Shown here in pieces: positions 6,001 through 12,000 of a DNA stretch of 17,379 nucleotides. The stretch comes from a virus (Duplodnaviria > Heunggongvirae > Uroviricota > Caudoviricetes), in IMG/VR virus record IMGVR_UViG_2690316318_000021, positions 1 to 17,379 of that record; one strand, written 5' to 3'. The position numbers were made by a program. Position 1 is the stretch's first letter. Every line of letters starts with the position of its first letter.

Positions 6001-9000
6001 ACACGCCAGGTGTACGCGCTTTTATCAACAAAACCAGCCTTTTTCAGTTCCCATAGTTCGTTCAGCACTTCTTCACGACTGACATCAAGTCGCGCAGCAA
6101 GTTCTATGGATGTGGCTTTTCCCATTGCTTTCAGTGCGTCAAAAACAGTCTCCATTAAATTTTTCTCCTGGTAAAACTTACTTCGTGATTCCTGGCTGGA
6201 CGACATTCGGGCGCCAGCTTTCCCAGTTAAAATTCACCCATCGTCCGCCGTTCATGGTCATGCGATCCATAATCCTCTCGCCGAGCAATGTTTTCATGGC
6301 CCCATAGTTCAGGTTTGTCAGCATTCCCACGCTACGCATCGACGCTGTCCGTCGATCAATAATCTGGTGCAGTACCACCTGCTCGTTTTTCGTCTCGCGC
6401 TGAATGCCAATCTCATCAAGAACCAGCAGATCCACTTCGCACAGTTCCCGCAAAAATTTTTCGCCTGACTGCCCGTCGTCATAGCTGGCATGCAGGGCAC
6501 TCATAACATCAGCCACAGTAACCACAATCACTGTCTGGCCATCTTTCAGCAGGCTATTCCCGATAGCTGCCGCCAGATGGTTTTTTCCGGTACCAGGTTT
6601 TCCGCTGAACGCAAAATTTGTACACCCGGTCATCAGTTCATCAGCGATGGATTTCGCCTGACTCAACGCGTATCGCTGCCCTTCGTTCTGCACCTGGTAA
6701 TTCGAAAACGAGCATTTGCGGTGCAACGGCTGGATGCCAGAGCGATTCAGGATTTTTTCCACCCGCAACTGACGATTCAGGCGGTTGATCTCCTCGCAAC
6801 GTTTCTGGCCTTCTGCAAGTTGCCACTCGCGCCACTCCGCCACCGTTCTGAATGGGGCGGTTACATGTGGTGGGGTCATTCTGCGGATACGTTCAAGAAC
6901 GCCACCTGCCGCAATATTTTTCATGGTTCGTTACCCCCTGAAGCCTGGCGGGATCGCGCTGTCCGGCAACGAGACGGTGTTAACCTGCCGAGGCAACGTC
7001 TCCGGTCGAACGCCTTTCGGCGCGAACAAGCCCTGGTATTCGTTGGCGATGCTGTGTCGAATAACCTGCTCAGGGGTAAAACCCTGCTGGCGGAATTTTT
7101 CCAGTTCCCGTATCGCCCCGTTAGCGCCCTGCTCCGTTCGAATCGGTTTTCGCAATGCCTGCCTGAACTGAACCCACTCATGCCAGAGTGTTTCCGGCAA
7201 CCACTCAGGCAGAGCTATGGCCTCTGGTTCGAATTTTTTAGCCGCTCGTTTTTGGCGAGGGGGGTTCAGGGGGAGATCAGTATTTATATCTTCCTCTTCA
7301 TCTTCCTCTGGTAACGCTTTTTGATTCGTTTGTGTAACGCTGGCAGCGTTACCTTTTCGTTTCAGCTCGCGTATTTTTGTAACTCTCTCGTTTGTAACCG
7401 CCCGTTTTTTAGAGCTTTTTCCGTTATGACGTTCAAAGTTAGGTAGAGAAAGCCCACCGTCATTTTCGACCAGCCATCCAACCTGAATTAACGCATCAGC
7501 AAAACCAGCCATAAAAGTGATGCGATCTATTGCACTTTTTGTAACGCCACGAGCGTTACAATCTGCGTTACCGTCTATCATTTGTTGATCCGCCCATGCC
7601 CAGAAGCGAATAACCTTCCCTAATGCGGCATCTGGATCAATATTCAGAATCTCAGCAAGCCTGAATATTTCCGGCTTATCCGGCGTAATAACCTCGAGCT
7701 TTATCCAGTTTGAAGCCATTTGTTTTCACCTTGTAACGCTCGCAGCGTTACATTTAACTGATACCGAACAAAACAGTCCGGCACGATTAATTTCAATCAA
7801 TGCACTACGACAGAATCGCCGGGCGAGCCACCGCCGCTGAAATGTGCTTTCCGGTAAACGGCCTGAACTGCATCATCATGCGCATCAATTGCCGTACTCA
7901 ACGCTTCCTGTGCCGCCAGCAATGCCCGGCGTTCCAGGGTATCGAAAATGCTGAGTCGGTGGCGCAGTTCGCGCGGAAGGATTGCCAGAATTGCAGGGAT
8001 CAGTTTCTGAATTTTTTCCCTTTGCGCTTCCGTTTCACCTTTTAACCAACGGTGATAGATGTTCTGCTGATTGTTCCAGTCTTTACCTGGTATCAGGGGC
8101 AATTCGCCGCCCCCCTGGCGCAGATATTCTTCAGTAATTGCATTGGCTACCCATGCCTGCCCTTTTTCGGCTGCCAGGGCTAACAACACTGATTCGATGT
8201 GCTCATGCCTGATTTTCATGAATCAACCGCTCCTATGCTGTTTTCGCTATGCTTACCGCCTGGGGGGAATACATCGTCAAGCCCACAATGAGCGCCAAGC
8301 CGATTAAGGGTAGAAACTATTTTTCTGCACTCCTCTAGCCCAGGGGTACGAAAATTTGCTTCGTAATTTGCCAGTCGGCTTTGTATCCACCCTAACTGAA
8401 CAGCGAGTTGTCTTTGAGACAACCCAAGCTGTTTTCGATATGTTGAAATTTTGTTCATCATTACCTCCTGCTTCTATTATTCACATTTCGTGAGCAAGAT
8501 CAACTACAGATACGTGAGTACCGCTAGTTTCACACATCGTGATAAAATCGGAGCCATGAAAACCATTGCAGAACAAATAGGCGAGCGACTAAAAGCCACT
8601 CGCCTAAATCGAGGATTAAGTATGGGAAACCTGGCAAAACTATGTGGTTGGTCAGGTTCTTCTCGTATTGCTAACTACGAAGCTGGCACCAGGAGCGTGG
8701 GGGCTGAGGATGCGATCATCCTCGGCCAAGTACTAGGCATTTCCCCCGCAGAATTAATGTTCGGTGAACAGGAAAACACTTACTCGTGGTTAAATGATAA
8801 CCAGAAAAAAATGCTAGAACTGTTTAATCAGCTCCCAGGATCGGAACAAGCACGCATGATTGATCTGTTCGAAATCCGTCTTCAAGAGCTTGATGAGTAT
8901 GTGGAAAAATATCTAAGAAGCAGGCAACAGAAAAAATCCTCCTAAGCCTTTAATCTCCCTCGATTCCAATCAAAAAGCTCTCGCTATTAGCGAGGGCTTT

Positions 9001-12000
9001 TTTTGTCCATCAAAAATCCAAAAGCAATACCGCTCACATATTGAGTTGACAAATCACTCACGATATGTGAGCATTTGTCATATCCAAACAACGCCCCACC
9101 AGAGAACGGCTGGACAATACCTCGAGTTATCCAGTCACTGAACAGGGCTAAGTAGCCAGCCTGAGGCATACGAACATGACGGCAGTTGTTGATTGATACA
9201 AAGCGCAGTAGATAAAACGTTCCGCCACCCGGCGTTAAGGGGAAAAAAGATGGTGCATTACGAAGTAGTTCAGTATTTGATGGATTGTTGCGGTATCACT
9301 TACAGCCAGGCTGTGCAGGCTTTACGTAGCAACGACTGGGATCTCTGGCAAGCAGAAGCCTCTATCCGCAACAACAAGATGTGAGAGTTCCCAAAATGCA
9401 AAAAATCGACCTCGGCAACAACAAATCCCTGGTGTGCGGTGTGTTCCCCAACCAGGATGGAACGTTCACCGCGATGACGTATACAAAAAGCAAAACATTT
9501 AAAACCGAAACTGGTGCGCGCCGATGGTTGGAGAAGCACACAGTAAGCTAACGATTAAAACGTCTACTCCTGCTGTTCCAGAATAACTTCATAAAATGGG
9601 AGTATTTTTCGGTGACGAGATAATAAGAACAGTTTGCGCTATCACTCTGATGTTGAATGATGCCCTTCCGTTCTAATTTTTTCATAACCGGGTTACGGCA
9701 AGGAGAAGTGATAATAAGATTTCCTGTTTTAAGGAAATCTTTAAATACAGCGATTTCTTTCTCAGATAAACGAAGCAATACTCGTTGCTCTGGTAGTAAT
9801 GAATAATGCTTTTGAATATGTGCTCGCAATCTTGAGAAGGAAATGGCGACCACGAAAGAAAAGGCAAAAACGATAATCTGAAAGAGCCAAGGTATTTCAG
9901 TATAAGCATTGAATGCGACAGTAAACTCTTTCGGTATCAGCCAGAGAGTGAGACCAAAAATGATAATCGTATACATAAGTCTTTCGAGTGGCTCGTTAGC
10001 AAAAAGTTTCAACAATGGAGTAAATACATCCAACATATCAATAACTCTCAACTGTAAGGGTATTGAAATGTTAACACAAGCTCTCGCTGTAGGGGTATAG
10101 CCGAGACCACCGAAGCCCGGAGGTGGTGAAATAAAACTGGGCGCAACACGAAGGCGCATTTCCGATATCCATAAAGAGTCGGTCTTGTCTGTTAAATTTA
10201 AATGGTGGGAGTGCGCCTCCGGTTGTAAATAACGACATTGCTGTGTGTAGTCCTGGCGGCATCAGTTTTTTCTTGAAGTTTGGCTGATGTCCGCCCTTTT
10301 TAAAGTGAATTTTGTGATGCGATGAATGCGGCTAAGCGCACGCGGAACAGTTAAAGCTAAAAACAGTGTTATGGGTGGATTCTCTGTATCCGGCGTTAAT
10401 TGTTAACTGGTTAACGTCACCTGGAGGCACCAGGCACCGCATCGACAAAATTCATTTGTAAAAATGGAGATAATTATGATTGCTCATCACTTCGGAACTG
10501 ATGAAATACCACGTCAGTGTGTGACCCCTGGCGATTATGTTCTTCATGAAGGTCGGACATATATCGCCTCGGCAAACAATATTAAAAAGCGAAAACTTTA
10601 TATTCGTAGCCTGACTACAAAAACATGCATTTCTGACTGCATGATTAAAGTCTTCCTCGGTCGTGATGGTTTACCTGTAAAGGCGGAGTCATGGTAATGA
10701 CTAAGAAAATAAAATGTGCTTATCACCTTTGCAATAAAGAAATTGAAGAAAGCAAAATCATTACAAGACCACTTCATTTCATGCGTGGAGTTATACCAAC
10801 GACGGAAATGAAAAAATATTGTAGTGAAATCTGTGCCGAAAAAGACCAGATGGCACACGAACTTTAATTAACTGACTATCCGAAACTGAATTTATGCCAG
10901 CAATGGCAGGGATTCGCTCAACCTTAATTAAGGAGAAAAACATGATTACCAGTTATGAAGCCACTGTTGTTACTACTGATGACATTGTTCACGAAGTCAG
11001 CCTGGAAGGAAAGCGTATTGGCTACGTGATTAAAACAGAAAATAAAGAAGCCCCTTTCACTGTGGTTGATATCGACGGTCCATCAGGCAACGTTAAAACA
11101 CTTAACGAAGGCGTCAAAAAAATGTGCCTAGTGCATATCGGAAAGAATCTGCCCGCAGAAAAAAAGCCGAATTTCTGGCAACTCTGATTGCAATGAAATT
11201 AAAAGGTGAAATCTGAAGAAATAGCCTGCGTATGACGCAGGCTATGAACAGTGTGTATCCGGCAAGATTATTCACTGAACAAACGAATTTTAATCTGAGT
11301 TGAGGTTAAAAAACAATGAGCACCGATAAACAAGTTTACCCACTGTATTACGAAGCAAAAAATGACAAAGTAAGAAAACGTCTCGGTATTAAAGGCGGTT
11401 TTTACTGGGCTGAAGCGAAAAAATTATCCATTGCCATCTCCCGTGGTGCTGTTGCGATTGACGATGCTGGCTACGATGAAGATGACTTCAAAAAACCTGT
11501 TCGCGTCAATTTGCCCGTTGTTGATGGCCTCCCGCCAGAAGGCGTATTTGATACGGAATTCTGCAACCGATACGAAAAAGGCGGGGAAGATGGTATCACA
11601 ATGGTACTTATCGCGCCCTCTGTTCAGGATAAACCAGCCAGCACTGACAATACCAACGTCAACGGTGAAGACATGACTGAGATTGAGGAGAATATGCTCC
11701 TGCCAGTTTCAGGTCAGATTCTGCCTGTTCGATGGCTGGCGCAACACAACAGCGAAAAACCGATCACGCACGTTTCGCGGGACGAACTGCGCGCATTACA
11801 TAACGCACAGGATGAAAAACTTCCCGCCGTTACCGCGCTGGCCATCTCAAATAAAGCAGCGCAACTCGAACCACTGGAAATTCGCGATCTCCACAAACTG
11901 GTACGCGACACTGACAAAGTTTTCCCTAATCCTGGTAATTCAGACCTGGGACTGATAACCGCTTTTTTCGAAGCATACCTGGGCGCTAACTACACCGATC

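Follow-up and report, generated by a model that had tools for sequence, protein, structure and literature searches.

Predicted operators flanking the repressor gene of a Rac-like lambdoid prophage suggest a lambda-type immunity switch

The 17,379 bases of viral DNA at positions 1 to 17,379 of IMG/VR record IMGVR_UViG_2690316318_000021 (hereafter the window) represent a Rac-like lambdoid prophage whose immunity region carries copies of a short palindrome, TCAC-N5-GTGA, on both sides of a gene that codes for a putative repressor. This locus raises the question of whether these palindromes are operators and, if they are, which proteins would bind them and which genes would be controlled as a result. 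The initial annotation of the sequence named the repressor gene racR and its divergent neighbor ydaS, and it proposed that right and left operators (OR and OL) flank the repressor gene and define a regulon composed of ydaS-ydaT on one side and ydaG-ydaF on the other. Comparative and positional evidence obtained in silico strongly supports the OR/OL-style arrangement, and on sequence grounds we consider it very probable that the palindromes serve as operators in an immunity switch of the lambda type. As described below, the names of the two regulators and the extent of the regulon do need to be revised.

The three exact matches to TCAC-N5-GTGA, namely TCACATTTCGTGA at 8481-8493, TCACACATCGTGA at 8530-8542 and TCACGATATGTGA at 9058-9070, are located where the initial annotation placed them and are the only exact matches in the window. 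This compares with an expectation of 0.20, and three or more matches were obtained in 0 of 200 dinucleotide shuffles. The 9058-9070 site is contained within a 15-bp palindrome, CTCAC..GTGAG, at 9057-9071. An unbiased repeat search of 8440-9120 returned the same sites (families D1, D2, I2, I3 and I6), and the 5-bp half-site TCACR is present eight times in the 125 bp of OR and OL cores versus 0.35 expected (Poisson P = 4e-9). The sites recognized by CRP (TGTGA-N6-TCACA) and the LexA boxes are unlike this motif in half-site order and spacing. For comparative analysis we scanned viral contigs and recovered 80 loci that code for 26 distinct repressors with 59-100% identity to that of the window; a scan of genome contigs with an alignment of two repressor alleles returned no relatives, and the viral-contig scan and a protein search were used instead. 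The density of CAC-N5-GTG, calculated over the 66 non-identical loci, is 10.4 per kb in OR plus OL versus 0.24 per kb elsewhere, a 43-fold enrichment. A position weight matrix (PWM) constructed without the window ranks the three exact sites first with scores of 21.9, 21.5 and 17.0, the next match having a score of 10.6. The PWM from other alleles also adds purine and pyrimidine preferences, which gives the consensus TCACR-N3-YGTGA.

The intergenic region between the repressor gene and the divergent cro-like gene is 94 bp long and contains two exact sites, OR-A and OR-B, as well as one half site that belongs to OR-M (Table 1). The latter had been noted as a CGTGAG sequence between the two exact sites; it is present at 8513-8518, constitutes the only good half of OR-M and occupies the position of OR2. 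The centers of the three sites (8487, 8511 and 8536) are separated by 24 and 25 bp, as compared to 24 and 23 bp for the three OR sites of lambda, and their distances to the repressor ATG are 69, 45 and 20 bp versus 66, 42 and 19 bp in lambda. OR-A, with a PWM score of 21.5, is located in the spacer of a predicted promoter that reads in the cro direction (PR) and that was the only match to the sigma-70 consensus (9 of 12) between 8400 and 9300. The equivalent promoter in one of the other alleles (L047) is TTGACA-N17-GAACAT. OR-B, which is the top PWM match in the window (21.9), abuts a putative -10 hexamer of the repressor promoter (PRM). The lambda PRM region reads GTGA-TAGATT-6 nt-ATG and produces a leaderless cI transcript, while in the window the GTGA of OR-B is followed by TAAAAT, 7 nt and the ATG. 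A TA.A.. hexamer that is located straight after GTG(A/T/G) and 6-7 nt before the ATG is present in 10 of 10 alleles, and no Shine-Dalgarno (SD) sequence is conserved before the repressor ATG. From the conserved hexamer, its distance and the lack of a conserved SD we infer that PRM is leaderless, with the repressor mRNA probably starting at ~8556. Leaderless starts have been reported for lambda cI, racR and paaR2 (PMC9638921, PMC8630535). The cro-like ATG at 8458 is preceded by a strong SD, AGGAGG, at 8464-8469.

On the other side of the repressor gene, the terminator that had been proposed to separate this gene from the downstream sites is real (Table 1) and is followed by two predicted operators, OL2 and OL1, that are spaced by 24 bp. 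These sites are in register with a predicted early-left promoter (PL), which reads GAG-TTGACA-aatcac-TCAC-gatat-GTGA-GCAT in the window versus GTG-TTGACA-taaata-CCAC-tggcg-GTGA-TACT in lambda, and the same reading applies to most other alleles as well as to the related loci of the Shiga toxin 1 (Stx1) phage VT1-Sakai (GenBank AP000400) and of Proteus prophages. Based on this shared register, OL1 (PWM score 17.0) would fill the PL spacer, OL2 would abut the -35 and GAGCAT with its upstream TG would constitute the -10, with a predicted start at ~9080-9082. Lambda shares with the window an OL2 that abuts TTGACA, an OL1 that begins 6 nt after TTGACA and the operator core TCAC-N5-GTGA; it differs in having three OL sites where the window has two clear ones. 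In six of eight tabulated alleles, 18 bp separate the first T of TTGACA from the center of OL1, and alignment gives the same distance for VT1-Sakai, Proteus and lambda; the exceptions among the eight are pAEv1818, where the distance is 16 bp, and an allele that we term O157-type, which has no full site. The second left site had originally been described as a CTCA-catat-TGAG palindrome at 9034-9046 next to a TTGACA hexamer at 9045-9050. Both sequences exist, with corrected coordinates of 9033-9045 and 9046-9051, respectively. The palindrome is nevertheless not the favored operator, as alignment of the alleles supports TCAC-atatt-GAGT at 9034-9046, and a C-to-T variant at 9033 among close relatives, which is outside of the OL2 TCAC, breaks the palindrome and keeps TCAC. 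The left-half CAC of OL2 is invariant in 10 alleles, and the O157-type allele, VT1-Sakai, Proteus and lambda each have a full site in the place of OL2.

Table 1. Predicted operators, promoters and genes of the immunity region (coordinates of the window)
Feature	Position	Strand	Description
OR-A, OR1 equivalent, predicted operator	8481..8493	.	TCACatttcGTGA, center 8487, 69 bp before repressor ATG
OR-M, OR2 equivalent, predicted operator	8505..8518	.	TACAgatacGTGAG, center 8511, 45 bp before repressor ATG
OR-B, OR3 equivalent, predicted operator	8530..8542	.	TCACacatcGTGA, center 8536, 20 bp before repressor ATG
PR-like promoter (cro-like/ydaT-like operon)	8476..8503	-	-35 TTGATC (8503-8498), 16-nt spacer, -10 AATAAT (8481-8476)
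Putative PRM -10 TAAAAT	8543..8548	+	directly after OR-B, 7 nt before repressor ATG
OL2, predicted operator	9034..9046	.	TCACatattGAGT, center 9040; good left half, degenerate right half
OL1, predicted operator	9058..9070	.	TCACgatatGTGA (palindrome 9057-9071), center 9064, inside PL spacer
PL-like promoter	9046..9074	+	-35 TTGACA (9046-9051), 17-nt spacer, -10 GAGCAT (9069-9074) preceded by TGt
Repressor gene	8556..8945	+	129 aa, DicA family: XRE-type helix-turn-helix (HTH; residues 4-69) + helical hairpin (81-128)
Intrinsic terminator of repressor gene	8972..9004	+	-19.4 kcal/mol, z = -6.55, then T run
Cro-like gene	8216..8458	-	80 aa from ATG 8458; alternative ATG 8461
ydaT-like (CII-analogue) gene, second in PR operon	7797..8219	-	Pfam YdaT_toxin PF06254, E = 3.8e-11
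ydaG-like gene, PL operon start	9250-9384	+	DNA nearly identical to K-12 ydaG
ydaF-like DUF1391 gene, PL operon start	9396-9551	+	Pfam DUF1391, E = 4.6e-27

In alleles with repressors that are 59-84% identical to that of the window, the non-coding DNA has diverged except for a set of invariant or near-invariant islands that comprise the CAC and GTG of OR-A and OR-B, the left-half CAC of OL2, the OL1 core, the TTGAC of PL and the PRM hexamer. The CAC and GTG of OR-A and the TTGAC of PL are invariant in 10 alleles, the OR-B core is invariant in the diverged alleles, and the GTG in the right half of OR-M is present in nine of 10 aligned alleles and in VT1-Sakai, with the Proteus row reading CGTTTA. 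Positions are conserved as well. In the 66 non-identical loci the OR sites begin at fixed distances before the ATG, at -74 to -70 and at -25 to -24, and an OR-M equivalent is located 43-46 bp before the ATG in seven of eight tabulated alleles, with none found in pAEv1818. An alignment with eight close relatives (96-98% identity to the window) has variation in 24 of its 259 non-coding columns, as compared to 0 of 36-41 half-site positions (P = 0.01-0.02). The half-sites, the right half of OR-M and TTGACA do not vary, and the only varying base of OR-A is 8487, the center of its spacer.

This pattern also bears on whether the palindromes might have arisen by chance or might function as RNA hairpins, for example as a terminator or attenuator at 9057-9071, instead of as operators. 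The consensus scan does list 9057-9071 as terminator-like. However, the hairpins that the palindromes could form are weak (-5.7, -3.2 and -2.8 kcal/mol, with z = -1.2 to -3.1; OL1 has the value of -5.7 with z = -1.2), and their arms are conserved in sequence, being always CAC and GTG, without covariation, while the loop varies freely. The sites are additionally upstream of the predicted transcription starts, and chance is excluded by the motif count, the 66-locus enrichment and the half-site count. We therefore regard this explanation as very improbable.

Heteroimmune alleles of this region differ from ~8462 to 9078, with identity stopping at the cro start codon and resuming at 9079, the predicted PL start, and their Cro proteins are 99% identical. 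These boundaries suggest that the exchanged cassette consists of OR, the repressor, the terminator and OL/PL. The allele in the window is present in 10 of 5,426 complete E. coli genomes, and the O157-type allele, with a repressor that is 64% identical at the protein level, is present in a further 152 of these 5,426. The Rac and Qin prophages of K-12 have the same two-sided layout, each with its own motif. We also observed that an entry recorded as 'Actinobacillus phage vB_Apl-pPE4' (PP818812.1, our locus L011) has an immunity, kil and recE region that is 97.9% identical to that of this prophage. The recorded host of PP818812.1 is Actinobacillus pleuropneumoniae, an assignment that looks doubtful.

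The identity of the regulators is a separate issue from the sites. Synteny with the K-12 Rac prophage is extensive, as ydaT, ydaG, ydaF, sieB, kilR, recET and ralA are all present, and the homologues of ydaT, ydaG and ydaF had been correctly identified. From synteny it might be supposed that the sites are operators of a K-12-type RacR. However, the repressor yields no BLASTP alignment with K-12 RacR at E <= 100 and differs from it in Pfam profile, and the Cro-like protein, which yields no BLASTP alignment with K-12 YdaS, matches Pfam HTH_3 and not YdaS_toxin or P22_Cro. Furthermore, the RacR operator TAGGC-N3-GCCTA (PMC9638921) is absent from the window even when 1 mismatch is allowed, as compared to five matches in K-12 Rac. 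Control by a K-12-type RacR is thus refuted at the sequence level, and we assign it next to no probability. By these comparisons the repressor is not K-12 RacR, and the names racR and ydaS as used here represent synteny-based misnaming. A mobility shift assay with purified RacR, as had been proposed for these sites, would consequently employ the wrong protein.

The window repressor belongs to the DicA family. It aligns with DicA of the Qin prophage over residues 1-125 with 29% identity (E = 6e-15), which indicates full-length homology, and an AlphaFold2 model (predicted local distance difference test score 89.8) consists of a five-helix HTH domain (4-69) and a helical hairpin (81-128), with SinR as the top-ranked PDB match. 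Pfam matches of the repressor are HTH_31/HTH_3 only, with no S24 peptidase domain. The HTH of the Cro-like protein resembles that of the repressor (GW.QSRLANYEA versus GWSGSSRIANYEA, E = 2e-6), and the recognition helices of the repressor and the Cro-like protein are alike (GWSGSSRIANYEAG versus GWIQSRLANYEAN).

The N-terminal, DNA-binding domain of the repressor is 63% identical to Proteus CI and 57% identical, over 70 aa, to VT1-Sakai CI, with the similarity to both ending at residues 72-75 of the repressor. Compared directly by BLASTP, the repressor and lambda CI yield no alignment, such that the link to lambda is only transitive, through Proteus CI. The Cro-like protein is 62% identical to VT1-Sakai Cro (over 66 aa) and to Proteus Cro. 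VT1-Sakai and Proteus carry the same CAC-N5-GTG core in three OR and three OL sites, they share the TTGAC(A/C) register, and the middle OR site of VT1-Sakai has a right half only, as does OR-M. The VT1-Sakai GenBank record annotates 17-bp sites such as AATCACAATATGTGACT as putative OR/OL operators, among which the half-site-only middle site is AACCTCAATTCGTGTAC. There are also clear differences. The CI proteins of VT1-Sakai and Proteus, which are 50% identical to lambda CI, have a lambda-like S24 autopeptidase domain, while the window repressor lacks S24 and has a DicA/SinR-like helical C-terminus. Their OL is found at a distance of 1.8-2.9 kb, where it immediately precedes gene N, whereas the OL of the window is ~0.5 kb away and no N gene is seen. 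With respect to lambda itself, the Cro of lambda has a different fold from the XRE-type HTH of the window Cro, and the outer half-site bases differ (TTCAC versus TATCAC in lambda). As judged from these sequences, a VT1/lambda-type DNA-binding domain, Cro and operator core is used with two C-terminal domains, either the S24 autopeptidase or the DicA-like helical domain. By comparison with the Proteus loci L092-L094 and the VT1-Sakai locus L096, SOS-inducible and non-cleavable repressors are related by a clean domain swap.

Comparison with characterized switches of DicA, RacR and PaaR2 provides additional context. DicA is a short repressor without a cleavage domain, and the layout of Qin is the same as in the window, with a cro-like gene, repressor, terminator, operators on the early-left promoter and then a DUF1391 gene. 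DicA acts at dicCp and dicBp, and its repression of dicBp is lifted by the antirepressor Rem (bioRxiv 10.1101/2023.04.14.536235). Unlike the window, the Qin operators are of the TGTTAGTCATAACTAACA type, which indicates that the specificity of DicA differs from that of the window repressor, and DicC is unrelated to the Cro-like protein. K-12 Rac has the same prophage backbone and genome-map position, with a repressor, Cro and operator that are unrelated to those of the window. Three intergenic sites for RacR, (T/A)TAGGC-N3-GCCTA(T/A), have been footprinted, and its mRNA is among those reported to be leaderless (PMC9638921). In examining K-12 Rac we observed two RacR-type sites, TAGGTAATGCCTA and TAGGCTATGCCTA, that are 25 bp apart between racR and ydaG (7631-7668 of our locus L001). 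They are located on a TTGACA-N17-TATAGT promoter downstream of racR and would be the analogue of OL/PL. The RacR papers that we consulted describe sites in the racR-ydaS intergenic region only, though racR silencing derepresses ydaG through intR. Lastly, PaaR2, YdaS and YdaT of CP-933P constitute an experimentally characterized case from a Rac-like prophage, in which OR and a PL/OL analogue are repressed by both regulators and the repressor mRNA is leaderless (PMC8630535). PaaR2 differs in having operators that are 18-bp palindromes with the half-site GTTTAGTAA and in that the repressor is in an operon with a toxin-antitoxin pair.

Taken as a lambda-type switch, the locus would function as follows. 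Dimers of the 129-aa repressor and dimers of the 80-aa Cro-like protein would each bind 13-bp sites with the consensus TCACR-N3-YGTGA, and the Cro-like protein would compete for the sites of the repressor. Occupancy of OR-A would shut off PR and with it the operon of cro-like, ydaT-like and replication genes. Repressor synthesis would continue from PRM, and it would be limited by autoregulation at OR-B, which abuts the PRM -10. Occupancy of OL2 and OL1 would shut off PL and thereby ydaG/ydaF-kilR-ydaE-recET-xis-int. By position, the regulon would be wider than originally proposed, as PR leads into replication genes and PL into kilR-ydaE-recET-xis-int. OR-M, with its right half-site only, would need cooperative binding, and since OR-M and OL2 each have one poor half, both probably rely on cooperative contacts made by the C-terminal helical domain. 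Derepression probably requires an antirepressor as opposed to RecA cleavage, because the repressor has no cleavage (S24) domain. An ORF6N-domain (Ant-like) protein that is encoded at 1-612 on the minus strand is a candidate antirepressor for this non-cleavable repressor. Its gene adjoins a C4 antisense RNA, a1/b1 targets and isrK (665-863), and this ORF6N/C4/isrK module (1-863), which is downstream of the Q-like gene, corresponds to a P1/Gifsy-type antirepressor module.

A more restricted possibility is that the sites are real and are used by only one regulator, either the Cro-like protein or the repressor, or that OL serves as a looping or autoregulatory anchor without control of PL. One Cro (99% identical) does serve two alleles with repressors that are only 64% identical and site flanks of TCAC versus ACAC, and the PL -10 is weak and was not called by the consensus scan. 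These points are countered by the similar recognition helix that the repressor and Cro-like protein share and by a register of TTGAC and OL1 that is fixed in all alleles and equal to that of lambda PL. In analogous systems, moreover, both regulators bind OR and repress PL, as with PaaR2 and YdaS (PMC8630535) and with DicA at dicBp (bioRxiv 10.1101/2023.04.14.536235). We consider this restricted version to be unlikely and favor a switch in which both regulators act at OR and OL.

Several observations weigh against the proposed switch. The PRM -35 (ACCGCT) and the PL -10 (GAGCAT) are poor consensus matches, PR being the sole promoter that a simple scan detected. Since one half of OR-M and one half of OL2 are degenerate, occupancy of these two sites would hinge on the assumed cooperativity. 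The PWM was built from sites that had been selected with a regular expression, which makes its core columns circular and leaves it unable to score these two half-degenerate sites, for which half-site counting was used instead. In addition, mononucleotide shuffling of the window produced a PWM score as high as 21.9 in 1 of 100 trials, and the conservation test among close relatives is modest, with P of only ~0.02.

The design of the switch is of the classical, textbook lambda type and its arrangement is ordinary. In a literature search we found no published account of this allele or of its motif. What the analysis provides is a probable operator code, TCACR-N3-YGTGA, together with a promoter map and a regulon for this immunity type, which is rare in E. 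coli, as well as a correction of the racR and ydaS naming. Of modest interest are the domain swap and a possible cross-talk with Stx1 phages. The genome of at least one sequenced strain, E. coli 2013C-3342 (NZ_CP027766.1), carries both an O157-type Rac-like immunity allele at 1.808 Mb and a VT1-Sakai-type cI at 5.358 Mb. Given the shared operator core and this co-residence, the resident Rac-like repressor or Cro could bind operators of Stx1 phages, and Stx1-phage regulators could likewise bind those of the Rac-like prophage. Such cross-binding could lead to an SOS-insensitive cross-immunity or to altered induction of Stx1 phages. The OR and OL of the window, being ~0.5 kb apart, could also form a short repression loop. 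We put these possibilities forward as speculative and rather doubtful; if cross-binding does occur, cryptic Rac-like prophages and Stx1 phages would influence each other's regulation.

The remainder of the window is consistent in gene content with a lambdoid prophage. Leftward of the immunity region are a Q-like gene, hok/sok (at ~2883-3206), a DnaC-like gene and the ydaT-like gene, and rightward are sieB, kilR, ydaE, recE, recT, RalA, xis and int, adjoining ryeA/sdsR. The integrase end is ~130 bp from the ryeA/sdsR small RNA pair, with a yebY-like gene (DUF2511) beyond (window 15569-16918). This adjacency indicates that the prophage is located at the ryeA/sdsR locus and not at the K-12 Rac site.

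A few minor sequence features were also observed. An inverted repeat with 13-bp arms (TAGGCGAGCGACT / AGCCACTCGCCTA) is present at 8578-8606 in the 5' part of the repressor gene and is terminator-like on the minus strand. The YdaT box (TTGATT-N6-AATCAA) was considered as a source of the operator motif and was found to be unrelated, its only near match being an inverted repeat, CTGATTTTCATGAATCAA, at 8209-8226 with 1 mismatch. This repeat is at the cro-like/ydaT junction, where a PRE-type promoter would be expected to have its CII-like activator site (PMC9986795, PMC11879457). There is no support for a structured or antitermination RNA in the PL leader (9079-9249), as z = -0.17 and the consensus fold is weak with 6 pairs and no covariation; Rfam gave no match in 8400-9300. 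This non-coding leader is nearly identical between heteroimmune alleles, and blocks such as AGTAGC..GCATACGAA and CGTTCCGCC..GGCGTTAAGGGG are also conserved upstream of Qin ydfA and in phages that are only distantly related.

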